DNA from: an uncultured Planctomycetia bacterium
GTDB lineage: Bacteria; Omnitrophota; Gorgyraeia; Duberdicusellales; Duberdicusellaceae
Reading direction: 5' to 3'
Length of the DNA stretch: 64,000 bases
Assembly (NCBI GenBank): GCA_964634935.1
Contig: CAZWJT010000005.1
Coordinates: forward strand, 7,128 to 71,127
Numbering within the stretch: position 1 is the stretch's first letter; each line of letters begins with the position of its first letter. Under the pieces are notes generated by a model. That model ran no database searches. It saw only the letters and a program-made list of their open reading frames with translations, and was not told the origin of the DNA. Both the position numbers and the translations under genes were made by a program. Of this stretch, positions 14,957 through 60,680 are shown in pieces.

Positions 14957-15967
14957 TTAATATAGGGTAATTTCCTTACGTAGATACCGGGCGGAAACTT
15001 CGGGCGGAGTCTCAACCACGTAAAAACCACTCCCCCACTCAAAACCGGCGATTCGAGTCAATTTCGGCATGATTTCAATATGCCAATGAAACCCTGGATA
15101 TGTTTCCGTGTTAACCGGAGACGTATGCACAATATAATTATAGGGAGGGTCCCTCAGCACTTCTCGGAGCCGCCCGATGCTTTGTTTTAAAATCAGGGAA
15201 AGCAAAGTAATTTTGGCATCCGTAATCATCACAAAATCATTTTCGTGTTCTTTGGGCATAATCCACACCTCAAAAGGGAAGCGGGAAAACAAAGGACAAA
15301 AAGCGATGAATGAATCATTCTCAAAAATAATTCGTTCACGGTTGTTCGAAAGTTCCTGGGTCACCATATCACAAAAGATGCAGCGCTCGTGGTAGCTCAA
15401 ATAGCGCTCTGCTCCCTTAATTTCTTCCTGCACATTTTTGGGAACCATGGGAAGCGCGATAAGTTGTGAATGACCATGCTCAAGCGAAGCTCCGGCGGCT
15501 TCTCCGACATTTTTAAAAAGAAGAATGTATTTAAAACGCTTATCGTTTCTCAGATCAAGACTCCGCGAACGATACTTGCTGAGCATTACTTCGACTTCTC
15601 TATCGTCTAGCTCAGAAATACCCTTAAAGTGATAGGGGCTATCGACAATAACTTCATGCGCTCCGATTCCATTTGACATATCATACATACCGACCGCCTG
15701 CTTATCAAGCGTACCTTCGATCCGTAAGGCAGGAAATTTATTTGGCACAACCCGGCTCATCCAGCCGCTCGTATTCGCCAAGGTATTTGCTGGTCGCACC
15801 GCTTCAATTTCAGGGGGAGTCATCGCTTCGTTACCAGGACAAAACGGACAACCTTTCTCTCCCTTCCAAACATGTTGATCAATATGAAAATCACGCGGCG
15901 AAAAAGGACGATCGGTATTCGTAATCACCCAACGCCCCGTAATAGGATCTTTGCGTATCTCCGACAT
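14957..15967 (-). CDS. GalT-like HIT-family nucleotidyltransferase (galactose-1-phosphate uridylyltransferase family), paralog 1 with an intact HxHxQ motif
   Basis: 336 aa. It has the zinc site CPFCPGNE. FKNVGEAAGASLEHGHSQLIALP aligns to the E. coli GalT FENKGAAMGCSNPHPHGQ segment (HxH nucleophile motif). Confidence 0.8.
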   Translation of the reverse strand: MSEIRKDPITGRWVITNTDRPFSPRDFHIDQHVWKGEKGCPFCPGNEAMTPPEIEAVRPANTLANTSGWMSRVVPNKFPALRIEGTLDKQAVGMYDMSNGIGAHEVIVDSPYHFKGISELDDREVEVMLSKYRSRSLDLRNDKRFKYILLFKNVGEAAGASLEHGHSQLIALPMVPKNVQEEIKGAERYLSYHERCIFCDMVTQELSNNRERIIFENDSFIAFCPLFSRFPFEVWIMPKEHENDFVMITDAKITLLSLILKQSIGRLREVLRDPPYNYIVHTSPVNTETYPGFHWHIEIMPKLTRIAGFEWGSGFYVVETPPEVSARYLRKEITLY

Positions 15968-15970
15968 AAC

Positions 15971-16999
15971 TCAGCTTACCACTTCTGGGTTCTTTAAAAA
16001 TTTTGCCGCTTCTTCCGGCGGAACAGGACAGATATAAAAACCACTCCCCCACTCAAAACCGGCAACTAATGTCAGACGAGGGATGATCTCCAAATGCCAA
16101 TGGTAATCCTCTTCGATGGTTGTCCAATATCCTTTCCGTTCTCGACGAAACGGAGCGCTGTGAATCACATAATTGTATGGCGGGTCTCCCAGTAGTTTTT
16201 TTAACCGCGAGAGGATTTCTTTCAACACCACCGCTAAGCTTCGAGACTCCTCGGGATTAATATGCTGAAAATCAGCGCTATGGCGTTTTGGCATCACCCA
16301 CACTTCAAAAGGAAATCTCGGAGCAAAAGGAGCCACGGCGACAATGCCGTCAACTTCGAGAATAACTCGCTTCTGTTCAGTTAATTCCTGCTTGACAAGA
16401 TCGCAGAAAACGCACCGTTCATGATACTCAAAGTATGATTTTGCGCCCGCCAGTTCCTCTTTCACCCGTTTCAATACTACGGGTGTTGCAATAATCTGAG
16501 AACGCGCATGGCGCACTCTGCCCCCTCCTGCTTTCCATCCATAATTCTTAAAAATAAGGACATACTTTATCCTTTTATCCTGTTCAAGGGTCTTTATCCG
16601 TTCCGCATAGGCAGTAAGCACCTTTTCTATCTGCGTAGTTTCCAGATCAGCCATATTTGCAATATGCTGAGGGGTTTCGATCACAACCTCGTGGCTGCCA
16701 GTCGCACCCATAAGATCATACAGGCCAACGCCCTTCTTCCATAGTTCATTGTCTAACTTAAGAAAAGGAGAGATGCTCGGAACAACGCGGATATCCCAGC
16801 CGGGAGCATTTGACTGAGGATGAGCGCGACGAATAGCAAATAACTCGGACGGCGTGTTCCCTTCCTTTTGTTCGCAGAAGGGACACTCTCCCTCTTGAGG
16901 GCCATCGTTGACTTTTTTAAAATCATTTGGTCTTTTGGCCCGTTCGGTCGAAATGATAACCCATCTCCCGAGAACCGGATCTTTCCTTAATTCAGGCAT
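15971..16999 (-). CDS. GalT-like HIT-family protein, paralog 2; the nucleophile His position is occupied by Arg
   Basis: The preferred start is the ATG at 16999..16997 (MPELRKDPVLGRWVI...); the 67-codon ORF-track extension was rejected. It has the zinc site CPFCEQKE. The active-site segment is FKNYGWKAGGGRVRHARSQIIATP, that is H-A-R-S-Q instead of H-x-H-x-Q. Confidence 0.75.
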   Translation of the reverse strand: MPELRKDPVLGRWVIISTERAKRPNDFKKVNDGPQEGECPFCEQKEGNTPSELFAIRRAHPQSNAPGWDIRVVPSISPFLKLDNELWKKGVGLYDLMGATGSHEVVIETPQHIANMADLETTQIEKVLTAYAERIKTLEQDKRIKYVLIFKNYGWKAGGGRVRHARSQIIATPVVLKRVKEELAGAKSYFEYHERCVFCDLVKQELTEQKRVILEVDGIVAVAPFAPRFPFEVWVMPKRHSADFQHINPEESRSLAVVLKEILSRLKKLLGDPPYNYVIHSAPFRRERKGYWTTIEEDYHWHLEIIPRLTLVAGFEWGSGFYICPVPPEEAAKFLKNPEVVS

Positions 17000-17090
17000 G
17001 AGTATTTTCTTTTTTAAATAATTATGCTGTATTATAACAACCTGGGAAAAACTTGCAAGATTTAAAATAGGCGTGGGGAAGGAAGATGGA

Positions 17091-17810
17091 TTACAAGAAT
17101 TTTTTTGCCTGTGCGATAGCTTCAGGGAGCGAAAGCACTCCTTCATAAAGAGCTTTACCGACGATTGCCCCCCAAGCTCCAAACTCCGCGATCTTCTCAA
17201 TATCAGCCAGAGACGAAACGCCGCCGGAAACGATAAAATGGCACGGGAAATCTTTGATGAACTTCTGGGTTTTTTCCAGCTCAGCCCCTTGCATCATCCC
17301 ATCACGCGAAATATCAGTATAGATAATCCACTGAATCCCCTTCTGCACAAGCATTTCAAAAGCAGATTGAACCGGAATATCCGCAGTCTGTTGCCATCCA
17401 AGCGTAGCAACATATCCATCTTTCACGTCAACACTCACCGCTATCTGTTCTGCTGAAAACTTTGCCAAAAGATGTTCAAGTAGGTTTCCGGCAAAAGCTT
17501 TCGTACCGATGATAATCCGAGAAACCCCTTCATCGAGCAACATGCGCGCCTTGGCAAAATCCCTGATTCCTCCACCGGTCTGCAGTGGTATACCGGTTGC
17601 TACGATTTTCTGGATAACTTCGAAATTATCCAAGCCCGTAGAAAATGCCGCATCTAAATCGACCACATGAAGAAAATCGGCTCCTTGATCCTTCCAGCGT
17701 TGAGCGTATTCGAGAGGATCTTTCGAATAGACAATTTTTTCCGCAAGTTTCCCTTGCCGAAGACGGACTACTTCTCCGTTTAAAAGATCGATGGCCGGAA
17801 TTATTTTCAT
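17091..17810 (-). CDS. hisA: ProFAR isomerase HisA
   Basis: MKIIPAIDLLNGEVVRL...; (beta/alpha)8 HisA/HisF family. It is immediately downstream of hisH with a 4-nt overlap. Confidence 0.9.
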   Translation of the reverse strand: MKIIPAIDLLNGEVVRLRQGKLAEKIVYSKDPLEYAQRWKDQGADFLHVVDLDAAFSTGLDNFEVIQKIVATGIPLQTGGGIRDFAKARMLLDEGVSRIIIGTKAFAGNLLEHLLAKFSAEQIAVSVDVKDGYVATLGWQQTADIPVQSAFEMLVQKGIQWIIYTDISRDGMMQGAELEKTQKFIKDFPCHFIVSGGVSSLADIEKIAEFGAWGAIVGKALYEGVLSLPEAIAQAKKFL

Positions 17811-42884: not shown

Positions 42885-43556
42885 ATGGAAAGAACGCTCC
42901 GTCAGACACATAGAATTGAAGAAGCATTTTTTAAGAAAGAAAAGTCTGAGCGTACACTAAAAACCCCGTTAAAAAAGAAAAAGGTATTCTTCTCTATTCT
43001 CCTCAGTTCCCTGCTTGTTTCTGGGGTAATTATCACAGCGATCATCACCCTTGGAAAGTTTGACTTCTTGATCTTGGTTACGCCAAAACAAAAAATCGGA
43101 TCTTCTCTTTCAGAAAACATTCTCACGAAAAACATATCTGTCGCTACGCAAAACCGAAAGTCGTATGCCAATCTTTTTGACAAAGGAACCCTGAACATCG
43201 TTTCTTCAAAATCCAGACCTGCGGTAGTGACCCTTGATTTTCCTGAACCGCTGAATGCAAAAGGCAGAACACTTACCCTGCAAACACAACAACTTCCGGT
43301 CAACACGTCCTTTGCCATCTTCTTCCGCGACAGCTTCCATTACTCCAACGCGCTTGCGCCTGTTTTCGTGACCGTGAATAAAGAAAACCCGCTACCCGCT
43401 CCTCTTCTGTCAATTCCTTTACCGGAAGAATCTAACCCGCAGATCGATTGGACAAAGATAAACCAGATCAGGATTAAGGTAATCCCTCTTTCCCAGGTAG
43501 ATACCCTTGTTGTAATCAAACATATGTCCCTTGAAAAAAAGGAGGCCAAGTTATGA
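42885..43556 (+). CDS. Membrane-anchored hypothetical protein: basic N-terminal tail, single TM helix, and a C-terminal extracytoplasmic domain of unknown fold. Candidate partner of the downstream ParA-type ATPase.
   Basis: 223 aa. Residues 1-35 are Lys/Arg-rich (FFKKEKSERTLKTPLKKKK), followed by the TM helix FFSILLSSLLVSGVIITAIITL. The stop overlaps the next gene start in an ATGA motif (43553..43556). Confidence 0.6.
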   Translation: MERTLRQTHRIEEAFFKKEKSERTLKTPLKKKKVFFSILLSSLLVSGVIITAIITLGKFDFLILVTPKQKIGSSLSENILTKNISVATQNRKSYANLFDKGTLNIVSSKSRPAVVTLDFPEPLNAKGRTLTLQTQQLPVNTSFAIFFRDSFHYSNALAPVFVTVNKENPLPAPLLSIPLPEESNPQIDWTKINQIRIKVIPLSQVDTLVVIKHMSLEKKEAKL

Positions 43557-44581
43557 AAGTGGTGTCGGTCACCAATCAAAAAGGAGGGTGCGGAAAAACG
43601 ATTACTGCGGTGAATTTTGCCGCTGCGCTCGCCCGAAAAGGGATAAAAGTTCTCCTGATAGACCTTGATCCGCAAGCCCACGCCACATACGCTTTAGGCT
43701 ATAAAGATACAAGCGAAAAGAACATACTCCGGGTTTTTGACTGCATTATCCAAAATGGATCATGGGACCTAAAAGAATTCCTGTGGGAAAAAAGCGCAAA
43801 TTTATCTTTTCTTGCCTCAACCATGGAATTAAGCGCCTTGGAACAAGAACTTAAAGATAGCCAATACTCTCTTGAAATCCTTAACAAGCTCATCGATCAA
43901 GCTGAACCTATGGGATTTGAATACATCGTCGTTGACTGTCCGCCAAGTCTTGGCTTTCTCACCCTTAACGCCCTAAAATCCTGTGATACAGTGCTGGTGC
44001 CTCTTGACACAAGCTTATTTTCACTCGTAGGCCTTGACAGTTTATTGAGAGTCGCTTCGCTCACGCAGCACTACAGTGACCGTTTGCCCAACTTCTATTA
44101 CCTGGTCACTATTTTTGACAAACGCTCTAATTTTGCAAAACGATTCATGGAGACAGTGAACGAACAATTTTCGGATAAACTCTTAACAACCATTATCCGC
44201 AACAATGTTCATCTGCGCGAATCGGCTTTACTTGGCAAAACCATTTTTGAACATGATGCAGCTTCAAACGGCGCAAAAGATTATGCAAGCCTGGTTGACG
44301 AGATACTCGCAAAAGATAGAGCAAAACGAACAGTAGAGTTTCGCTGTGAAGCCCCTCAAGCGCAAAAAGTGTATATTACCGGAGACTTCAATAACTGGCG
44401 GAAAGAAGAAAAATTCTCGCTTGTTCCGTCCGATGGAATCTGGAGAAAAAAAGTTTCCCTGCCTCGCGGTGCATATAACTATAAGTTTATCATCGACGAC
44501 ACGTGGACGCACGACAAAGCAAATCCCCAACTACAAGACGACAGTTACGGAGGGTTGAACTCAATTATCACGATTCAGTAA
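43553..44581 (+). CDS. ParA/MinD-family P-loop ATPase fused to a C-terminal AMPK-beta-type glycogen-binding domain (CBM48)
   Basis: The deviant Walker A is VTNQKGGCGKTITAVN. Residues ~265-342 (VEFRCEAPQAQKVYITGDFNNWRKEE...YNYKFIIDDTWTHDKANP...GGLNSIITIQ) align closely with the AMPK beta-subunit glycogen-binding domain. A GGAGG RBS lies 8 nt upstream of the start. Confidence 0.85.
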   Translation: MKVVSVTNQKGGCGKTITAVNFAAALARKGIKVLLIDLDPQAHATYALGYKDTSEKNILRVFDCIIQNGSWDLKEFLWEKSANLSFLASTMELSALEQELKDSQYSLEILNKLIDQAEPMGFEYIVVDCPPSLGFLTLNALKSCDTVLVPLDTSLFSLVGLDSLLRVASLTQHYSDRLPNFYYLVTIFDKRSNFAKRFMETVNEQFSDKLLTTIIRNNVHLRESALLGKTIFEHDAASNGAKDYASLVDEILAKDRAKRTVEFRCEAPQAQKVYITGDFNNWRKEEKFSLVPSDGIWRKKVSLPRGAYNYKFIIDDTWTHDKANPQLQDDSYGGLNSIITIQ

Positions 44582-48268: not shown

Positions 48269-48559
48269 CTACCCCTCCAAAAACCGTTTTGCCTCTCCCC
48301 GTTTATATTCCGAGAGAAAATCTTCAAAATCAATAAAAATAATCTGATCTTTATAGCCTTCAACGGGACGAATTTGCTGTTTTCTGCGGAAGGCGATATA
48401 CTTAAAATTCGTCTTGCATTCGGGACAACTCAATACATCCCTTTTCAATCCAACCGCGCGGCAATTAAAACACTCAGCGCTTAAATCCCCCATCACCAAA
48501 AGATACGGCTTTATCGCTTCAGTATCGAACTGCTTCCAAACACGAACCCATGAACTCAT
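48269..48559 (-). CDS. Small zinc-ribbon protein, hypothetical
   Basis: 96 aa with CFNC...(x13)...CPEC. It sits in an operon between the LOG and DUF336 genes. Confidence 0.4.
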   Translation of the reverse strand: MSSWVRVWKQFDTEAIKPYLLVMGDLSAECFNCRAVGLKRDVLSCPECKTNFKYIAFRRKQQIRPVEGYKDQIIFIDFEDFLSEYKRGEAKRFLEG

Positions 48560-49215
48560 TTTTTCTTGCGGTAAAATTTCTTGATAATCTGCAGTACTTC
48601 CTTGGCCTCATCCACAACATGGAACAGGGATAGATCGTCTGAAGCGATAGCCCCGAACTTACAGCATGTATCCCGAAGCCAGCCAACCAGATTTTTCCAG
48701 TAAGAAGTTCCGACAAGAACTATGGGAAAGGCGTGAACCCGCTGAGTCTGAACCAAGGCAAGTCCTTCAAAAAACTCATCAAGCGTTCCAATGCCTCCGG
48801 GAAAGATAATGAATGCTTTCGAATATTTGGTAAACATGACTTTCCGCACAAAAAAATACTTGAATTCCAACAAATAGGTTACATAAGGATTGGGAACCTG
48901 CTGGTGAGGAAGAACGATATTCAACCCCACAGTCTCTCCTCCTCCCTCTTTCGCTCCTTTATTTGCCGCCTCCATGATTCCCTTGCCCGCGCCGGTAATA
49001 ATCGTAAAACGATTTTTGGCAAGTAATTGCGCGGTTTCACTGGCAAGCGAGTAATAAAAAGTTCCTGGCTTGGTTGCTTTTGAACCAAAAATGGCAACTC
49101 CGTCCTTAATCGTTGAAAGATTCTCAAAACCTTCTACAAATTCACTCATAATCCGGAATACCCGCCAGATATCCTGACGGTTGGCGGTAAGTTCAAAAGT
49201 AAGCGGCTTACGCAT
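48556..49215 (-). CDS. LOG-family protein (cytokinin riboside 5'-monophosphate phosphoribohydrolase / TIGR00730-type nucleotide hydrolase)
   Basis: GAGKGIMEAANKGA and PGGIGTLDEF (the PGGxGTxxE motif) are present. Confidence 0.75.
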   Translation of the reverse strand: MRKPLTFELTANRQDIWRVFRIMSEFVEGFENLSTIKDGVAIFGSKATKPGTFYYSLASETAQLLAKNRFTIITGAGKGIMEAANKGAKEGGGETVGLNIVLPHQQVPNPYVTYLLEFKYFFVRKVMFTKYSKAFIIFPGGIGTLDEFFEGLALVQTQRVHAFPIVLVGTSYWKNLVGWLRDTCCKFGAIASDDLSLFHVVDEAKEVLQIIKKFYRKKK

Positions 49216-49228
49216 CGTTCTGATAATG

Positions 49229-49669
49229 TTATCTTTTCACTCGATACAGTTTATCCTTACGCCTGACCCTTTGACGCACCAGAATCCCCACTTCATCCCC
49301 CTGAGAGACCCGGATAACCGGCTCATGGTTAACCTGCATGGAGGTAATCTTTTGCTCAAAATCACTCGTATACCCTTTAAAGTGAACTAAGTCTCCGTTC
49401 TGTAATGATGATCGGGAAATCTTTACCGCAGCAACATGAATTTTAGGAAAATAATGGGTTACGCGCCCTGTAAGCTCTTCGGAGGAAAGATTCTTTTTTA
49501 CCTGAAGTTTTTTCCTTTTGAAACGAACAGCGGAAACTTTGGGAAGGGATTTTTTCTTCGTGGCTATTTTGTGCGCAGAAACCTTGCGAAGTTTCTTGAG
49601 AGCTTTTCTTCTACGCGGCAAAGAAGCTTTCCCTCTTTTCTTCTTCTTAAAAAGAAACCCAAATATCAT
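49229..49669 (-). CDS. Hypothetical protein with an extremely Lys/Arg-rich N-terminal half and a C-terminal small beta-rich domain
   Basis: 146 aa. Residues 5-60 are about 50% K/R (KKKKRGKASLPRRRKALKKLRK...). The C-terminal GRVTHYFPKIHVAAVKI...GDEVGILV looks like a beta-barrel of the translation-protein type. There were no database hits by memory. Confidence 0.45.
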   Translation of the reverse strand: MIFGFLFKKKKRGKASLPRRRKALKKLRKVSAHKIATKKKSLPKVSAVRFKRKKLQVKKNLSSEELTGRVTHYFPKIHVAAVKISRSSLQNGDLVHFKGYTSDFEQKITSMQVNHEPVIRVSQGDEVGILVRQRVRRKDKLYRVKR

Positions 49670-49672
49670 AGG

Positions 49673-49996
49673 TTACACAACGAGCTTTTCAGCGATTTCA
49701 GAAATACCGGGAAATTTTGCATATTTTCCCATAAGCGCTGAAAAAATACCAAGGAAAGAAAGAAAAAAAAGAATGAGAAGCAAGAATTTTGCGAAGGTCC
49801 CAAGAATAAAAACCCGGGAAAGTAGAAGGCATAAAAATTCGAGAATACATAAAACTAAACCTTGGCGCGCATGGAAATGAGCGAATTTATTCTCCCTGGC
49901 GTAGAGCACAACGACAAAACACATAAAAAACACATAGGAAAGCGCCGCCCACCAGGCGCCTTGCCTGATTTCTGAAAGAGTTTCTTTTTCACTCAT
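49673..49996 (-). CDS. DUF4870-family small membrane protein
   Basis: The preferred start is the ATG at 49996 (MSEKETLSEIRQGAWWAAL...). The FHARQGL motif is followed by TM helices. Confidence 0.55.
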   Translation of the reverse strand: MSEKETLSEIRQGAWWAALSYVFFMCFVVVLYARENKFAHFHARQGLVLCILEFLCLLLSRVFILGTFAKFLLLILFFLSFLGIFSALMGKYAKFPGISEIAEKLVV

Positions 49997-50080
49997 AATA
50001 CTATGGTTTATATCATAAAAAAAAAGGTCTGTAAAGATGAAGCTTGGGAAGAATTCCGGAAACACAAGAACGTGAAAGAA

Positions 50081-53000
50081 CTACCAGGATTTAAAATCCG
50101 CTGGATCAAGAATCCGCCAAGTGCTGCGCGAGGCTCCGGAAATATCTCCGGGGGGAAGACGTAGATCATTCGGATCAGCAAAACTTGTATTATAGGAAAA
50201 ATTCCAGATACCCACTGAAGTATTATAATAATACCCGTATCCGCGTTCATATCCATACCGATAGTCACCTGGAACAGTAGCCTTCTCGCTGGGAGCAAGT
50301 TGAACAAATGCCCCTCCGATGCGCCTTGTCTTTGTCCCCTCGTTTGCATCAGAAGTATCGCCATCCCTATTTAAATCAGTCGCATACCAACGCTCAAGCA
50401 CATACCCCTGTGGGTCATACGGAGAAACGATCGCGGTATTATACGTAGAGGGAATGCTAGCGTATCCAGGTAACGCTGCATTGGTAAAGCTTGAAGAATA
50501 TCCTGAAGTTCCCGGAATATTCCAGAAATCAGCAGGATCAGAAAAAACCGCGTTTTTCTTCGTAGCATAAGGATTGGAGCCTCCGTTCAAATCCTGATGC
50601 CAATAGGTTGTAAGTACTCGTAAATCATCTAAGAAAGTGGCGCGCTCATTTGCCGTGGGAGGATTTGTGCCAGAAGGGTCCCAATCATACTCTTTTCTTC
50701 CGACAATAACCCCATTTCTTTTCACATAAAGATACCAATGTTTATCGCCAGGCCAAGCGCCACCATGTTGTTGATAGACACAGTCACCGGCAGCTCCGCT
50801 TGTAGCGCCATTTAAAACGAAATTTTGTAACGAACCCGCATCTCCAACATCCAGCAAATCAGCAGTATCACTGTCGTTCAATAAGTGGGCAGGATAATTC
50901 ACCGGCGCAGCCGGCTTATAAGGAAATGTGAGGGAACTGGCGAACGCGGCTTGAAACCCGTTAAACCCCGAAGAAAGCGTGTATACTTTGCGCTTTTCCG
51001 TAATTACCGAAGCCGGAGGAACTTTTGAAGCGCTATCGTTATAATCCGCAGAACCGGGAACTTTCTCATCCCAGGTTGTGGCTCCTGATTTTTTGTATTT
51101 CACAACATTATAATCTCCTGCAAGATAAATATTATGAGGAGTAACAAAAGTCAATCCTTCCCGGGGAAGTTTCTGCCCATTTTTCAAAACAACAGCAAAA
51201 TCACGCTCTAGATGTTCCGGCTTCAGGCTCTCAATATACACAACTCCATTAAAATTCGGTATCGCCCCACTATTGATCTTGGTAACCAAAGCTGCGACGT
51301 CGATTTCCAGGGTCTTTGTTTTACACACCCCTTTACTTGCGTCGCAATCCGCGCCAGCGCCAGTAACCGGATAAACCGGGTTCCAAAATGACGCTTCCGT
51401 AGTTACATCGCTTATTGGGTTAATGTCTCCTCCTGGATCAAACTTGACATATATGCCATTTGTCTGGGCTTCTGATTTCAACGTTGTATTTAAAGGCGGA
51501 GGGTCGATTTTCTCAGGACATCCTGAATTGTGCTCAAAAATATTCACCGGGGAAAGATCATCATCAACTCCGTCCGCTAAATCTTTCCAATCCCGCCATT
51601 CGGTCGCCTGCTCGTAAGTATTGAGAAATTTTACTAAATCGTATTCTTGGCCTGCCGTATCGCTTGTACCTGAAAAGTTATCCTGATCTCCGGTAACCCG
51701 GTCATGCCCGTATTTTAAATCATCCCACCATTCTTTATTGATGAAAGTTGGCCGAGCCGCGACCCAGTCAGCGTCAGTCCAGACTCTCGTATTGGGATTC
51801 GTCTGATACCCAGCCGTTAAATCACTTTGATAAATGCTTGCCCAATATCTTCTGTGTTTTAGTTTCCAATAATCAGCCCAATCAGTTCCCGGAAGCTCTT
51901 CGCTGTTTCCACCATAGATATCCCCTACGGTTCTTGCTCCCTTGTCGGAAATATCAACGTTCATCCGGACAAATTCTGTCTCCGGAACCACAAACCTGAT
52001 TGTGTTTTCTGGAGTTGGCAGGACGGCTCTATCGGTGCCGGAATACTTATCCCATGTCCAAGTTCTCTCAAGATAATACGGCAAACCAAGACCAGCCTGC
52101 AGAGCAGGATAGGCCGAGGCTGTTTGTTGCCATTTCGGTAAATTGGAAGGGGTAGCGGTATATGTTCCAGTTGTATTATAGTTAAAGTGAAAGAAAACAT
52201 TGTGAGTGATATAAGAATATGAAGGAGAAAAAGTAATTTGGTCATCCGTCAGATATAAGGGAGCTTTTCCATCTCTGCTATTGTTAGCCCAGCCATAATT
52301 TGAATTATCGTCTGCTGAATAAGGAGCAGTCATCTGATAATTCCACAATTTGATATATCCATTGGTACTCAGTTCTTTTAAATCCTTAAAGAGAGTATTG
52401 AGCCTTAAGGTGATGCCTTTCTGGAGATTTACATCAGCCTGTTCAACATTGACATGAATACTACCAAAACCGCCGCCGTCGTAAATAGTACTTGATTCAT
52501 CTGAAAAAGTCCTTGGTCCCGGATAAAACTGGAAAAATTCATAGAGCGAGCGTTTGATAACCCTCTGTTCAGCTGCCTTCTGAATATTGCCTATTTGGGC
52601 AAATACCCGGATAACCATCGCCTTAGAATCCTCCCAATTGGTAGGAGCGGTAAAAGGGTATAGTTCTTGGAAAGTTATGACCTTTAGCGTCGAGTTTGCC
52701 GGAAGATTCTGCAAGGTATAGTAGTAATCAGTGCCCGGGCCTTCGTTCACATAGGTATAATCGCCGGTAAGATGAATCTGCGGACGCCCAACATTCGCAC
52801 CAGCTGTATACGGACTCTGAATCGCAGGATGTCCGCTGTCATTCGGAAGAATCTGGGGATTATTAGGATTGGATATATCGATATAGTGCGTACACCACTG
52901 CCACTTCGTTGTGCTGGCCAACTCCCGGTATGCCGCCCATAAACCCCTGTTTATTAACGCATCGATTGCGGTTTCCTCAGTATCCCGCTGCGTGGTTCTT

Positions 53001-53179
53001 AAGCCTGAGGTGATGACGCTGTAGAGGGTGACCCCTCCAATCAGAAGAACCAGGACAACAAAAAAGACGACGACGATGACAACGCTTTTCTTTGATTTTT
53101 CTCTACCGCGGGGTTTTGCATGATCCTGCCTATCCATAGCAACCATATAAGTATATCTTTTTTTCATGGAAGAATTCAA
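50081..53179 (-). CDS. Large (1032 aa) secreted/surface protein with an N-terminal membrane anchor, encoded directly downstream of two pseudopilin genes (candidate pilus-associated adhesin)
   Basis: A basic N-terminus is followed by a hydrophobic helix (SVVIVVVFFVVLVLLIGGVTL). The remainder is rich in W, Y, N, G, T and D (beta-rich). No recognisable catalytic motif was found. The start is 1 nt after the stop of the upstream pilin gene. Confidence 0.6.
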   Translation of the reverse strand: MNSSMKKRYTYMVAMDRQDHAKPRGREKSKKSVVIVVVFFVVLVLLIGGVTLYSVITSGLRTTQRDTEETAIDALINRGLWAAYRELASTTKWQWCTHYIDISNPNNPQILPNDSGHPAIQSPYTAGANVGRPQIHLTGDYTYVNEGPGTDYYYTLQNLPANSTLKVITFQELYPFTAPTNWEDSKAMVIRVFAQIGNIQKAAEQRVIKRSLYEFFQFYPGPRTFSDESSTIYDGGGFGSIHVNVEQADVNLQKGITLRLNTLFKDLKELSTNGYIKLWNYQMTAPYSADDNSNYGWANNSRDGKAPLYLTDDQITFSPSYSYITHNVFFHFNYNTTGTYTATPSNLPKWQQTASAYPALQAGLGLPYYLERTWTWDKYSGTDRAVLPTPENTIRFVVPETEFVRMNVDISDKGARTVGDIYGGNSEELPGTDWADYWKLKHRRYWASIYQSDLTAGYQTNPNTRVWTDADWVAARPTFINKEWWDDLKYGHDRVTGDQDNFSGTSDTAGQEYDLVKFLNTYEQATEWRDWKDLADGVDDDLSPVNIFEHNSGCPEKIDPPPLNTTLKSEAQTNGIYVKFDPGGDINPISDVTTEASFWNPVYPVTGAGADCDASKGVCKTKTLEIDVAALVTKINSGAIPNFNGVVYIESLKPEHLERDFAVVLKNGQKLPREGLTFVTPHNIYLAGDYNVVKYKKSGATTWDEKVPGSADYNDSASKVPPASVITEKRKVYTLSSGFNGFQAAFASSLTFPYKPAAPVNYPAHLLNDSDTADLLDVGDAGSLQNFVLNGATSGAAGDCVYQQHGGAWPGDKHWYLYVKRNGVIVGRKEYDWDPSGTNPPTANERATFLDDLRVLTTYWHQDLNGGSNPYATKKNAVFSDPADFWNIPGTSGYSSSFTNAALPGYASIPSTYNTAIVSPYDPQGYVLERWYATDLNRDGDTSDANEGTKTRRIGGAFVQLAPSEKATVPGDYRYGYERGYGYYYNTSVGIWNFSYNTSFADPNDLRLPPGDISGASRSTWRILDPADFKSW

Positions 53180-53182
53180 GGC

Positions 53183-53719
53183 TTAGTTTCTTAAACGCAC
53201 AGAGCGCCTGCCCTGCGCCGGGACATTCACCCTTCCAATAACCTCGCGAATCATAATATCAATGATAACGACATCACCGGTGCGGGTTGCCTTAAACCGC
53301 TGGATATTATTCAGTAAAACCTTGTCGGTTGTATTTGCTCCATTCACGAATCTACGGATTAACTGTCCGTTAATTACCCTGTATTCATAAGACGCGTTCT
53401 GGATATTATCCGCGCCCCAGACAACCGTACGCAGCGCCGGGTCAAGTTTCACCTTCTTGTCAACAATCACCGGCGTGCGTATAGCGGTAATTGTATCAAA
53501 TCCACCCGGAGTAAAACTGATGAAATTCCTTGTGGCCTGCGATAAATCTTTCTCAAGAATATCGAGTGCCTGCTGAACCTTCATATCTAAAAGAACCGAG
53601 TTACTTGTTGTCATCCAGGAAATATTACTCGAAAAATACGTGGAAAATATTGCCAGCGACAAAACACCGACAATCCCGGCTACAATGAGCATTTCAACGA
53701 ATGAAACCGATTTCTTCAT
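53183..53719 (-). CDS. Prepilin-type N-terminal cleavage/methylation domain protein (pseudopilin / minor pilin-like)
   Basis: 178 aa. MKKSVSFVEMLIVAGIVGVLSLAIF places Glu at +5 if the cleavage is KKS|V. The N-terminal helix is hydrophobic. Confidence 0.6.
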   Translation of the reverse strand: MKKSVSFVEMLIVAGIVGVLSLAIFSTYFSSNISWMTTSNSVLLDMKVQQALDILEKDLSQATRNFISFTPGGFDTITAIRTPVIVDKKVKLDPALRTVVWGADNIQNASYEYRVINGQLIRRFVNGANTTDKVLLNNIQRFKATRTGDVVIIDIMIREVIGRVNVPAQGRRSVRLRN

Positions 53720-53724
53720 CCAGG

Positions 53725-54153
53725 TTATTTAATTTTAAGGATGGTGACATGCATCTCTGAACAACCAGCGGCAGCGGGTGTACAGTCTCCCCCGATCGGC
53801 AGATCATTCAGATTTGAATATTGCACGGCCAAGGTAACTGGTTTTGCTTCGCAAGTAGTGCAGGTTCCAGGGTCGATATCAGCTCCTTGGGTGATTACTC
53901 CTGAAAAACGGGAAAGAACGTTTCCGAAAGCATCCGTAACCTGGAAAGTCCCCGGAACGCTCGCATAATCCACCTGTTCAACAGCCGCCACTTGTGAGCG
54001 CAGCGCGTTCATTGCGATATGCTTATTATGGAGCTGGCGGTTTACGCGCATCGTAAAATCAACTGTTGAGAAAGCGACGCCTGAAATAAGTGCAAGGATA
54101 AAGGCGCTCACAATCAATTCTGCCAAGGTGAACGAGTTCTTTTTTGCCCGCAT
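53725..54153 (-). CDS. Type IV pilin-like / pseudopilin (prepilin N-terminal methylation motif)
   Basis: 142 aa. MRAKKNS|FTLAELIVSAFILALISGVAF has the canonical F+1 ... E+5 motif. Four C-terminal Cys are consistent with the disulfide D-region. Confidence 0.7.
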   Translation of the reverse strand: MRAKKNSFTLAELIVSAFILALISGVAFSTVDFTMRVNRQLHNKHIAMNALRSQVAAVEQVDYASVPGTFQVTDAFGNVLSRFSGVITQGADIDPGTCTTCEAKPVTLAVQYSNLNDLPIGGDCTPAAAGCSEMHVTILKIK

Positions 54154-54200
54154 ACCATCTCAGTATAGCACAGGAACATGTGAAAAACAATATAGCGGTA

Positions 54201-58373: not shown

Positions 58374-58446
58374 TGGAGCTGAGCGGACTTGAACCGCCGA
58401 CTTCCTCGTTGCGAACGAGGCGCTCTCCCAGCTGAGCTACAGCCCC
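58374..58446 (-). tRNA. tRNA-Ala (anticodon CGC)
   Basis: The minus-strand sequence is GGGGCUGUAGCUCAGCUGGGAGAGCGCCUCGUUCGCAACGAGGAAGUCGGCGGUUCAAGUCCGCUCAGCUCCA. It folds as a cloverleaf with a G3:U70 wobble (the Ala identity element), anticodon loop UUCGCAA, and T-loop GGUUCAAGU. No CCA is encoded. Confidence 0.85.
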
Positions 58447-58462: not shown

Positions 58463-59446
58463 TCAAAGGCAACATACCCGGTTCCTACCCTCTTTTTTGG
58501 CCTTATACAAAGCTTTATCCGCAAGTTCAATTAACGCCGCAGAATCTCCGGTATTTCCCGGAAAACCGGCAACCCCAATACTCAGAGTAAGATGAATATG
58601 CTCATCATACGCGGTAATCTCCTCTTTTGCAACTTTTTCCCGCAGACGCTCAGCAACTCGGCAAGAGATTTCTGTGGTTGCTTCAGGCAGAATAACCGCA
58701 AATTCTTCCCCGCCAAAACGCCCGATAAAATCAATCTCTCTGATATTATCTTTCAGAATCCGGGCAATCTTCTTCAAAACCACATCTCCAACCATATGGC
58801 CATACGTATCGTTGCAATACTTAAAGTGGTCAATATCGACCATCATAAACGAAAGCGAGAGTCCAAGACGGGTCGCCCGGCTAAACTCTTCTCCAAATCG
58901 CTCCATCAGATGCCTGCGGTTTGCTATCTTGGTAAGAGTATCCGTGATCGATAATCTCTGCATCTTCTCATAAAGCTTGGCGCGCTCAAGAAAAAGATTC
59001 AACTGAGATAACAAATAAGGGACTTGGCTGACAATGCGGCGGTCATCCGACGATATTCCGAGAAAAAAACCAAGATCGTTCGCTGCTTTGTAGTGGTAAA
59101 CGAAATATTTCTTTTCATCGAGCGGATGGGGTGAAACAACAACTTCTTGAATATTCTCAATACGAAGTAATGCATCCTGAAAAGCCCGAAGCAGTTCTTC
59201 AAAATTCAACGCTTCGGATATTTCCCGATTCACCTCATAGAGCTTTAAAACATTATGCGCACGCTCTTCTTCTCGGGTATATTTCTTGGAAATATCCTCA
59301 CAGCGGTTCCGGATATTTTCAAGGTAGACCCGCGCTGCTTCATATTCACGGAATATGCGCTTTGAGTACCGCTGGAGAAAGAAAAAAAACACCCCAACAA
59401 TCAACACGAGAAAGCCGATGTACCCAGTAAAAGTAAAAATGCTCAT
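58463..59446 (-). CDS. Membrane-anchored GGDEF diguanylate cyclase
   Basis: An N-terminal TM helix is followed by a sensor-like region and a GGDEF domain with RFGGEEFAVIL (intact GG[DE]EF). Confidence 0.85.
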   Translation of the reverse strand: MSIFTFTGYIGFLVLIVGVFFFFLQRYSKRIFREYEAARVYLENIRNRCEDISKKYTREEERAHNVLKLYEVNREISEALNFEELLRAFQDALLRIENIQEVVVSPHPLDEKKYFVYHYKAANDLGFFLGISSDDRRIVSQVPYLLSQLNLFLERAKLYEKMQRLSITDTLTKIANRRHLMERFGEEFSRATRLGLSLSFMMVDIDHFKYCNDTYGHMVGDVVLKKIARILKDNIREIDFIGRFGGEEFAVILPEATTEISCRVAERLREKVAKEEITAYDEHIHLTLSIGVAGFPGNTGDSAALIELADKALYKAKKEGRNRVCCL

Positions 59447-59465: not shown

Positions 59466-60680
59466 TCATCCCATACAACATACTCGATTCTTGCCTTGCT
59501 TCTTTGCTTTATACATCCGGCTGTCAGCGATACGGACTAATTCTTCAAAAAACTTGCTTTCTGCGGGAAAACTGGATATGCCAATAGATACTGTGGCCAA
59601 AATCTTTGTACGTCTTAATTCTATAGAAGCCTTCTGTATTTCCGAACGAACTCTTTCAGCAACCTTGTACGCCTGTTCAAGATTCTCAGCAAGAAGCAAA
59701 ACAATGAATTCTTCCCCGCCAAAACGCGAGATAATGTTCCCGGAATTCCCGATAACCTGTGTTAAGATATCTGCGATTTTCTTCAAAATCATATCCCCGG
59801 CGATATGCCCATACTGGTCATTGAGCTTCTTAAAATCATCGATATCAACCATAAACAAAAAGAAGGATGTAGAGTTGATCAAGCTGCGCTTGATTTCTTG
59901 TTTCAAGCGATCCATAAAAAAACCTTTTAGGTATAAACCGGTTATTCCATCATGGATAGCCATTTCTTGGGTACGGCGAAAAATAAATGACTTATCGAGC
60001 GCAACCGCCCCAATATCAGCGATGATTGAAAGCGCACGTAAATCTTCGATACGAAAAGCATTCTTTTCTCTGGACTCCGCCCGTAACGTACCGAGTATTC
60101 TCTTCCCCAGCGCGAGTGGAGCTTCAATCAACGAATTCACCACCCTGCTCTTTAAGCCCTCAATCTTCTCAAGGTCAAACCGGAAATCCTTGGCTAAATC
60201 CTCAATAAAAAGACCGCGGTTATGCTTCAAAACCCAGTAGTCAAAAATATCGCCTTCTTTCTCTTGAATAATGTAATTTCGATCTTCTTTTGCCACGGAA
60301 GTAAGCTTGAGCACTTTCGATTCATCTTCAACGAGAAAAAGTAAAGTACGGTCATTTTGATGAAAAACTTCTTTTACCTTGTGAGTGAGATACTCGCAGA
60401 TCTGCTGGGGCATTTCAAAACTCGCGATGTCTTCGATCACCACGCGGAATGTATTTAATTTTTGCATACGGAGCGGCATACTCTTCAAATACTCCTCTTT
60501 CTCTTTAATCTGCTCCTGATAAATATTGCTCTCCTCTTGCATCTGTTCGGCAGCAAGCAAATGCCGTTTTATCGCGCTTTGTTTCTTGGTATAGAAAAAG
60601 AAAAGGACAAAACCTGTTATGCCATACAGGCAAGAGAAAAAAAGAGGAAATGAAAGGTTGTAGGGAAGCGTAATTACCAT
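59466..60680 (-). CDS. Membrane-anchored GGDEF diguanylate cyclase (second, tandem)
   Basis: An N-terminal TM helix and a coiled-coil/GAF-like region are followed by GGDEF with SRFGGEEFIVLL. Confidence 0.85.
   Translation of the reverse strand: MVITLPYNLSFPLFFSCLYGITGFVLFFFYTKKQSAIKRHLLAAEQMQEESNIYQEQIKEKEEYLKSMPLRMQKLNTFRVVIEDIASFEMPQQICEYLTHKVKEVFHQNDRTLLFLVEDESKVLKLTSVAKEDRNYIIQEKEGDIFDYWVLKHNRGLFIEDLAKDFRFDLEKIEGLKSRVVNSLIEAPLALGKRILGTLRAESREKNAFRIEDLRALSIIADIGAVALDKSFIFRRTQEMAIHDGITGLYLKGFFMDRLKQEIKRSLINSTSFFLFMVDIDDFKKLNDQYGHIAGDMILKKIADILTQVIGNSGNIISRFGGEEFIVLLLAENLEQAYKVAERVRSEIQKASIELRRTKILATVSIGISSFPAESKFFEELVRIADSRMYKAKKQGKNRVCCMG

Follow-up and report, generated by a model that had tools for sequence, protein, structure and literature searches.

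What do two small pilin-like genes and one giant surface-protein gene build together when no filament machinery lies near them? The three stand in a row on the minus strand (54153..50081) of the stretch analyzed here, 64,000 nucleotides of contig CAZWJT010000005.1 from an uncultured bacterium of the Omnitrophota ("the window" throughout). A sequence-only reading had picked out three genes at this place: two with prepilin-type N-termini, and one for a large membrane-anchored protein of 1032 amino acids that might be a tip adhesin or a pseudopilus cargo. The reading frames (142, 178 and 1032 amino acids) are real and lie where they were placed, and the trio is probably a minimal I-J-K (PilV-PilW-PilX-type) core minor-pilin set for priming and capping a type IV filament, of which a type IVa pilus with machinery encoded elsewhere is the likeliest form. 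The giant protein reads as the K/PilX-type third member of the trio, enlarged by a very long insertion in the manner of ComZ and cyanobacterial PilX/HpsA, so that "cargo" gives way to a third pilin-like subunit. This view is carried by the order of the genes and its conservation, by pilin-type N-termini on all three proteins, by the absence of Glu5 from the giant one and by the linkage of the family to type IV pilus clusters.

The family is easy to miss. An exact look-up of P0001, the public gene call for the giant protein, found no entry. A word-indexed search with the protein found only 4 relatives, and gave 3 matches with a 37-sequence profile; this poor yield made a full hidden Markov model scan necessary to reveal the family. 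A profile built from the 4 relatives and run against 1.84 billion representatives returned 433 proteins at E≤1e-3 (55 at E≤1e-30), which are family representatives at 50% identity; about 30 of these are full-length, at 940-1070 amino acids, and the giant proteins align end to end. A GTDB genome scan with an alignment (A1) recovered zero relatives. A GTDB scan with a hand-made DNA pattern for the EWW.DL.YG.D motif, covering one genome per GTDB species, gave 22 loci, namely 18 family members and 4 chance matches (about the number estimated beforehand). The 18 confirmed loci are labeled Candidatus Omnitrophota (13) or uncultured Planctomycetia/Planctomycetales (5), and the giant family so far appears almost confined to Omnitrophota. 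This distribution points to Omnitrophota, or a close lineage of the Planctomycetes-Verrucomicrobia-Chlamydiae group, as the source of the window; the organism's RecA and GAPDH are both singletons when clustered at 90% identity.

Whether relatives conserve the three-gene unit had been posed as a check by the sequence-only reading, and they do: in at least 12 loci an I-like gene (131-175 amino acids, KKGFTLIEV) and a J-like gene (175-210 amino acids, GFTLxE...LRN) stand directly upstream of the giant gene. In a distant relative (P0004), a trio of 158 (N_methyl), 199 and 998 amino acids sits amid a full type IV pilus cluster of MshEN, two T2SSE ATPases, T2SSF, a two-component pair, the trio itself, PilN/O/P-like proteins, a secretin, a tetratricopeptide-repeat protein, PilM and PilZ. 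When the machinery proteins of one locus (L002) were used as tblastn queries, with ten further metagenome loci included, pilus machinery adjoined the family in L002/L003/L004, L008, L015, L019/L032/L039, L022, L028, L033 and L034. Type IV pilus clusters enclose the trio in L002/L003, L034, L032/L039, L022 and L028, and the arrangement is seen in part in L008, L015 and L033; a pilC-like gene is immediately upstream of it in L019, L022 and L028. Elsewhere (L007, L010, L020 and L029 among others) it has no machinery in view, as in the window. These clusters bear out the earlier suggestion of a minor-pilin module tied to a filament tip, and because relatives carry the trio inside complete pilus clusters, the lack of machinery nearby is not a sign of a machinery-independent system.

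Several other features recur around the family. An OmpR-type response regulator (~219 amino acids) and a HisKA/HATPase kinase (~298 amino acids) adjoin the giant gene in L002 (7184-8742), and the pair is also found in L007, L008, L009, L013, L014, L015, L017, L021, L034, L035 and L036; tblastn detected no homologue of it in the window. The pair may regulate the tip set. A retropepsin-like aspartic protease of 373 amino acids (PF13650/PF13975), with a hydrophobic N-terminus and a long region of coiled-coil look by eye, is encoded convergently to the giant gene within the pilus cluster of L002 (13033-14154, minus strand) and occurs also in L004, L005 and L034. Tandem duplicates of the giant gene or of the trio are present in L007, L014, L018, L019/L039 and L028, with copies only 28-49% identical. 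The contig encoding one relative, P0005 (Logan, L006, 3165 bp), carries a perfect inverted repeat of ~29 nucleotides at its ends (1-29/3137-3165), probably an assembly artefact.

The giant protein is much as first described: it has one hydrophobic segment (residues about 21-50 of P0001, the public gene call), an aromatic-, Asn- and Gly-rich composition (Tyr, Trp and Phe together 12.9%, Asn 6.4%, Gly 7.8%; Thr, Ala, Gly and Asp commonest, Tyr, Trp and Asn frequent), five cysteines, and no Pfam, NCBIfam or PDB sequence match. Its N-terminus, ...EKSKKS/VVIVVVFFVVLVLLIGGV (the slash marks the putative cleavage point), combines an unusually long leader of 21-32 residues with a hydrophobic alpha-1N segment that has Val at +5 and no Glu5. 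Across the family, a short basic leader ending in KG (sometimes in A or S) gives NxKG/vvLI and ~20 hydrophobic residues, again without Glu at +5; nearly all members share the Val there. An R...E....R....s.qAFYxAEaGIxYAYxE....W.TH motif follows, PilX_N-like in its AFYxAEaGIxYAY core, of which the window copy is degenerate (AIDALINRGLWAAYRE). Among Pfam models, PilX_N (PF14341) matches family N-termini most often, yet in no more than 4/39, always under cutoff (best E 1.3e-3), and not in the window protein; other weak matches are isolated (GspK 2/37, ComGG 1/37, HpsA 2/37). It is this pilin-type N-terminus without Glu5, together with the position after the I-like and J-like genes, that argues for a K/PilX-type third subunit. 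In the 37-sequence alignment, the family signature N-x-E-W-W-x-D-L-x-Y-G-x-D-R has an invariant W473 and nearly invariant E472, W474, D476, Y479 and G480; the window protein retains the nearly invariant residues of the family, signature included, and ends ...STWRILD... where the consensus at the C-terminal strand is SSWREI. The retained residues, and synteny with a 39%-identical relative, argue that the gene is functional. As every model score lies under its cutoff, the protein cannot be assigned to any curated family.

The two small genes were both said to carry the prepilin-type motif F+1...E+5, and this holds for the first only. Gene 1 begins MRAKKNS/FTLAELIV (mature segment FTLAELIVSAFILALISGVAF), with F+1 and E+5 but Ser at -1, and scores 21.4 bits on Pfam N_methyl (PF07963; cutoff 21.2). 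Its best weak NCBIfam matches are ComGE (E 4.5e-4, 20.3 bits, cutoff 49) and GspI (E 0.037, 14.5 bits, cutoff 44.35), and among 14 homologues by position 11 match ComGE, 8 PilV and 8 GspI (E≤0.01), all under cutoff. No score of gene 1 exceeds the curated cutoff of the class models used (TIGR01707 gspI, TIGR02523 PilV, NF041013 ComGE). Its C-terminal half has four cysteines (CTTC...C...C, residues 98-131). In the I-like pilins of L002, L010, L020, L007, L017 and L028, tandem Asp/Asn-rich loops of the form GEDxNxNGxLDxGEDxNxNGxxDSP have a calcium-binding look; the window protein lacks these loops and has its four cysteines in the corresponding region.

Gene 2 begins MKKSVSFVEMLIV, which departs from the F+1...E+5 pattern, and reaches only 12.5 bits on N_methyl, below cutoff. 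A gap-free alignment with 13 positional homologues (e.g., MKKA/FTLLEVVIV) places the likely cleavage site at KKS/V, giving V+1, F+3 and E+5, so that the protein reads MKKS/VSFVEMLIV (mature segment VSFVEMLIVAGIVGVLSLAIF). Invariant across the 14 homologues are E9 (Glu+5), P83, G102, R177 and N178; the last two form the family's terminal RN (...LRN), here ...VRLRN, and an LRN ending is found in many GspJ and PilW proteins too. With the J-like gene of a distant relative's trio (L002), gene 2 shares 25% identity (BLASTP E 1e-9), and a word-indexed homologue search with the J-like protein returned only the query itself. On NCBIfam, 6 of 14 members of the gene 2 family match GspJ (best 5e-8) and 8 of 14 match ComGF, with every score under cutoff; gene 2 itself gives Pfam ComGF at E 0.012 (16.3 bits, cutoff 27), no NCBIfam match at E≤0.01, and no score over the curated TIGR01711 gspJ or NF041002 ComGF cutoff. 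Weak matches to TIGR02599, "Verru_Chthon cassette protein C," occur in 9/14 J-like proteins, a hint that the trios are related to an uncharacterised pilin-like cassette of Verrucomicrobia, another lineage of the Planctomycetes-Verrucomicrobia-Chlamydiae group. Genes 1 and 2 thus appear to be I-like and J-like minor pilins, and since all family scores are sub-cutoff, we hold the assignment at the level of class only.

These class resemblances are also what a cap for a different filament might show. The trio could top a short pseudopilus of a type II secretion-like or exopolysaccharide-secretion system (HpsA-HpsB-D-like), with the giant protein pushing or binding the secreted polysaccharide or protein. 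The I-like and J-like families score on GspI and GspJ about as well as on PilV, some I-like members match HpsC and HpsB, two giant members match HpsA, and the T2SSE, T2SSF and secretin families of L002 are common to type II secretion systems. However, the type II secretion model matches are far under cutoff, the relatives' clusters have the PilM, PilN/PilO/PilP-like and PilZ proteins and two ATPases of a type IVa layout, and the Omnitrophota systems have been classed as type IVa pili (PMC10066038). We consider a pseudopilus unlikely.

Structure prediction for the giant protein is consistent with a pilin-like subunit interrupted by an insertion. AlphaFold2 (AF2) runs with alignments of 37 and 83 sequences gave mean predicted local distance difference test (pLDDT) scores of 68 and 76.5 and predicted template modeling (pTM) scores of 0.70 and 0.80, respectively. 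The predicted subunit has an alpha-1 helix of 60 residues (18-78) and a four-strand beta-meander (152-164, 171-185, 188-200 and 204-208), with pLDDT about 86-97 across helix and sheet; the pilin fold was judged from the secondary structure of the model. The residues that follow, the putative insertion, are modeled as short beta-strand runs (212-267, then 565-724) with a helical part rich in Trp and a variable, low-confidence stretch (745-900), and may form a beta-solenoid. After them comes a conserved strand that, we propose, rejoins the sheet of the pilin module; the final strands of ComZ and cyanobacterial PilX behave in this way. In Foldseek searches the best three PDB matches of both models were three chains of Thermus thermophilus ComZ (6QVI), at an insignificant E of 0.01-0.12. 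The sequence-only reading had named a well-known enzymatic fold unrelated to pili as grounds for abandoning it. Prediction and search found none: a known enzyme fold or a phage receptor-binding protein was rejected, as neither PDB nor BFVD gave any Foldseek match at E≤0.001. Profile searches of the PDB, run for the giant family, for its N-terminal module and for the J-like family, gave either no match or generic pilin N-terminal helices only.

How does the trio compare with tip complexes already described? Built on a GspK-like pilin fold, ComZ carries a beta-solenoid between its penultimate and last strands and has been argued to occupy the pilus tip together with PilA2 (PMC6561018). Like the giant protein, it is large and pilin-like and has a hydrophobic N-terminal helix; its bulky domain comes before the last strand, where that of the giant protein would also lie, and it is proposed to cap the filament along with a small minor pilin encoded next to it (PMC6561018). 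Yet ComZ has about 550 amino acids against about 1020 here, no sequence similarity is detectable and the structural match is insignificant; ComZ is, moreover, a DNA receptor in a competence locus, whereas the trio has no competence genes nearby. All cyanobacterial PilX proteins share the solenoid-insertion architecture, which is expanded in PilX_EPS/HpsA and proposed to replace PilY1 as tip plug (bioRxiv 10.64898/2026.02.12.705559). PilX_Com and PilX_EPS/HpsA are Glu5-less capping pilins with an inserted triangular beta-solenoid and small core minor pilins (PilV, PilW) beside them, the PilX_EPS/HpsA branch being greatly expanded with extra undefined domains (10.64898/2026.02.12.705559). The giant protein is like them in lacking Glu5 and in its small partners, and would be like them in its insertion. 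The solenoid-like motif region of one family member (P0026) matches NCBIfam EPS_HpsA (NF038301) at E 7.5e-6 over about 90 residues, the best in the family although its 23.8 bits compare with a cutoff of 400; the window protein does not match this model. The cyanobacterial sets differ in having a FimT/FimU-type fourth pilin where we find three genes, and belong to a different phylum.

More distant systems frame the comparison. The GspI-GspJ-GspK tip (PDB 3CI0) and Pseudomonas PilV-PilW-PilX likewise build a tip and priming complex from three subunits, one small, one of medium size and one larger that lacks Glu5. The third subunit GspK has an inserted domain, and GspI/PilV and GspJ are the classes of the best weak matches of the gene 1 and gene 2 families; GspK, however, has about 300 amino acids and an alpha-helical insertion elsewhere in the sheet. 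PilX of Proteobacteria, itself a small protein, acts together with PilY1, which is not a pilin, and the trio lacks a GspH/FimU homologue. Modular pilins (Streptococcus sanguinis PilB/PilC, enterotoxigenic Escherichia coli CofB, Vibrio cholerae TcpB) join a pilin module to a bulky tip module for adhesion (PMC8179133), but the module is appended via a linker and Glu5 usually kept, while here the mass is apparently inserted inside a pilin module without Glu5; at about 1020 amino acids, the giant protein also exceeds the 860-residue maximum of the modular pilin survey (PMC8179133). PilY1/PilC, with which the large protein was first compared, is similar in size (about 1000 amino acids) and as a proposed tip plug/adhesin accompanying core minor pilins. 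It is nonetheless a non-pilin with a cleavable Sec signal, often a von Willebrand factor A (vWA) domain, and a C-terminal beta-propeller. Such features are not detected here: Pfam finds neither a vWA nor a propeller domain in the window protein (as the sequence-only reading had itself remarked) or in 37 relatives, and the pilin-like N-terminus without Glu5 points to a K/PilX-type subunit, so that a PilY1-like adhesin is ruled out. We regard the giant protein as working like a ComZ or cyanobacterial PilX-HpsA cap pilin within a GspIJK-type core set: a new family, not a new kind of system. What sets it apart from known cap pilins is its size of about 1020 amino acids, its signature motifs, its phylum and the absence of a fourth adaptor pilin; the window trio is further set apart by its Ser(-1) sites and its separation from machinery.

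The resemblance to ComZ also invites a narrower reading, that of a competence-pilus tip on which the giant subunit would take up DNA for natural transformation as a receptor of ComZ type. ComZ, the best structural match, binds DNA and pairs with a small pilin (PMC6561018), and ComGE, ComGF and ComGG are among the top weak model matches. But the Com-model matches cover mainly the generic N-terminal helix, neither the surroundings of the trio in the window nor the clusters of relatives include comEA, comEC or dprA, and the insertion is about 2x that of ComZ, to which no sequence similarity was detected. A competence role is accordingly improbable.

Several results weigh against the view that the trio primes and caps a type IV pilus. 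The first concerns the surroundings: within about 74 kb around the trio there is no pilus machinery, major pilin or prepilin peptidase. The original reading had remarked on this absence, and it was confirmed. With a relative's T2SSE, T2SSF, PilM/N/O/P, secretin and PilZ proteins as queries, tblastn matched only the J-like and giant genes in the window; a six-frame motif scan of the 64 kb found only two N-termini of pilin type and nowhere the prepilin-peptidase motif GGGD[VIAF]K; and the flanks (~7 kb on the left side, ~2 kb on the right) hold housekeeping genes only, plus one generic PilZ-domain gene (116 amino acids, about 2 kb past the right end of the window; L041 274-624). Nor is there a fourth adaptor pilin of GspH/FimU type beside the trio. 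Family-model scores all fall below the curated cutoffs, AF2 confidence is poor at residues 745-900, and the ComZ match, with E 0.01, a Foldseek probability of 0.28 and a low TM-score, is insignificant. Finally, all three proteins have an atypical Ser, not Gly, at -1, and the giant protein has a long leader besides, so that their cleavage is putative.

The signal sites deserve a closer look, as conservation of a cleavage site among homologues was singled out at the start as a critical point. The region is conserved, and position -1 is occupied by a small residue (G, A or S). Ala or Ser is found there in relatives as well: KKA/F in both small pilins of L028, KRKS/IVLI in P0067 and KKKA/VILV in P0008. 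A relative from the same clade (P0005, 42% identical) has the canonical MQRLKNKKG/FLLM once its called start, which is too short, is corrected, while P0002 apparently has no leader, its contig ending at that point. All three window proteins have a leader ending in a small residue and ~20 hydrophobic residues, in keeping with the class III signal peptide of the type IV pilin/pseudopilin superfamily (PF07963, TIGR02532), and Glu+5 is present in gene 1, and in gene 2 if it is cleaved after KKS, and absent from the capping-type giant protein. We take Ser(-1) as the putative cleavage point in the trio.

The same sites could be taken to mean that the trio is uncoupled from any filament, the Ser(-1) N-termini serving as signal anchors that are never cleaved, and the giant protein being just a surface or periplasmic protein held by its membrane anchor. 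Gly(-1) in none of the three, the long and atypical giant-protein leader, the remoteness of the locus from machinery and from the family's usual two-component pair, and the seemingly leaderless P0002 (though its contig ends there) would all fit. Set against them are the Ala/Ser(-1) sites in relatives whose trio stands beside pilC (L028) and in other family members, the Glu5 kept in both small proteins, the canonical KNKKG/F site of P0005, and three intact, tightly linked genes that keep the family's conserved residues; this alternative, too, strikes us as improbable. The least probable is that the insertion is a beta-helix enzyme (polysaccharide lyase or hydrolase) at the pilus tip attacking host wall or capsule, for although short-strand runs and NGxxLPxGGLTxVTPxNVYxKGNYN-type motifs resemble beta-helix rungs, beta-solenoids are often hydrolytic (PMC6561018) and Omnitrophota have been proposed to be predators or parasites (PMC10066038), Foldseek gives no significant match to a PDB enzyme or a BFVD phage depolymerase or tailspike and no Pfam or NCBIfam catalytic domain is present. 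All four alternatives are less supported than a pilus-tip set.

As a pilus-tip set, the trio would operate by analogy with GspI-J-K, PilV-W-X and ComZ-PilA2. Prepilin peptidase would process the three subunits, whose N-terminal helices would bundle in the inner membrane. Because it lacks Glu5, the giant subunit would sit uppermost, with nothing addable above it. The complex would then prime polymerization of the major pilin underneath and end at the distal tip; trimer formation, tip location and adhesive function are all inferred. Motor, platform, peptidase and secretin would be encoded elsewhere in the genome, and type IVa pilus genes are reported in nearly all Omnitrophota genomes (PMC10066038). 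The ~800-residue insertion would form a bulky distal knob plugging the tip in place of PilY1 and contacting a surface, host cell or polymer, probably as an adhesin or receptor-binding module.

The layout of the locus and its neighbors is given in Table 1. The intergenic gaps within the trio are 5 nucleotides (genes 1-2) and 3 nucleotides (genes 2-3); the latter, first given as 1 nucleotide, widens to 36 nucleotides if gene 3 starts at the ATG of the public call (53146; 1021 amino acids), 11 codons downstream of the TTG.

Table 1. Features of the trio and its downstream neighbors (window positions; residue numbers are those of the giant protein).
Feature	Position	Strand	Description
Gene 1, I-like minor pilin (class level)	53725..54153	-	142 amino acids; GspI/PilV/ComGE class
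Gene 2, J-like minor pilin (class level)	53183..53719	-	178 amino acids; GspJ/PilW/ComGF class
Gene 3, putative giant K/PilX/ComZ/HpsA-class capping pilin-like protein	50081..53179	-	1032 amino acids from TTG 53179
Pilin-like module (predicted)	52523..53146	-	P0001 residues 1-208; charged leader, alpha-1N, long helix, beta-meander
Insertion of ~800 residues (predicted)	50147..52522	-	Residues about 209-1000; from AF2 secondary structure and pLDDT
Family signature N-x-E-W-W-x-D-L-x-Y-G-x-D-R	51698..51739	-	Residues 470-483, NKEWWDDLKYGHDR
Conserved C-terminal beta-strand (predicted)	50108..50140	-	Residues 1003-1013; pLDDT 90-94
Candidate promoter	54162..54190	-	TTGTTT, 17-nt spacer, TGcTATACT (extended -10); 8 nt before gene 1 ATG; read by inspection
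Small TIC20/DUF-like membrane protein	49673-50065		Downstream of trio
Basic protein, beta-barrel-like C-terminus	49229-49669		Downstream of trio
LOG-family protein	48556-49215		Downstream of trio
Zinc-ribbon-like protein	48269-48559		96 amino acids; downstream of trio

Upstream of the trio, 47 nucleotides before gene 1, is nadX (aspartate dehydrogenase), followed by panC, a ROK kinase and an AmmeMemoRadiSam-type protein. A promoter upstream of gene 1 is tentative, and the trio may be co-transcribed with nadX: the candidate in Table 1 failed a consensus scan, its -35 hexamer matching at only 3/6 positions, and promoter and terminator sites found by consensus scan of the locus were no more numerous than in shuffled sequence. 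No connection in function between the four downstream genes and the pilins is evident. Locus L001 shows the four in synteny, at 43-69% identity. The downstream synteny is shared with the closest relative, P0002, whose giant protein has 39% identity to that of the window and whose neighboring genes are 40-69% identical. The synteny kept downstream argues that the locus is stable and the giant gene maintained in the window's clade. Recent horizontal transfer of the trio was ruled out, the guanine-plus-cytosine content of the locus (0.45) being that of the rest of the window.

Farther off in the window, we observed by eye a tandem pair of GalT-like genes (14957-15967 and 15971-17200) and a ParA/MinD-like ATPase (43553-44581, plus strand) with a C-terminal extension, ...YITGDFNNWRKEE..., of glycogen-binding or E-set-like appearance, an unusual fusion; its gene is one of only two sizeable window genes on the plus strand. 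A tandem pair of GGDEF proteins (58463-59446 and 59466-60680) was confirmed by Pfam in L041, and the sole tRNA of the window is a tRNA-Ala with anticodon CGC (58374-58446, minus strand).

A bolder extension, which we offer as speculation and think rather doubtful, is that ultra-small Omnitrophota, which may be predators or episymbionts, use the giant cap pilin to recognize hosts or surfaces, that tandem divergent trios are interchangeable tips among which the OmpR-type system chooses, and that the window's lineage has a relaxed or altered peptidase or an uncleaved tip complex. If true, genomes with several tandem trios could mount pilus tips of differing specificity, and the trio's move away from the machinery, together with Ser(-1), would imply either a prepilin peptidase of relaxed or altered specificity or a tip complex that is not cleaved.

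To our knowledge, there has so far been no description of the tip component of Omnitrophota pili. These bacteria are widespread, uncultured and ultra-small, are suspected of attaching to or preying on cells, and almost all have type IVa pili (PMC10066038). A giant family without a Pfam or NCBIfam model, paired with two minor pilins and often found in pilus clusters, is thereby an obvious candidate for the tip plug or adhesin of those pili. For annotation, the window's three "hypothetical" genes can be labeled as a core minor-pilin set. More broadly, the family would extend inserted-domain cap pilins (ComZ, cyanobacterial PilX-HpsA) to another phylum, and it offers a concrete target for structural work, binding studies and cryo-tomography of enrichment cultures.

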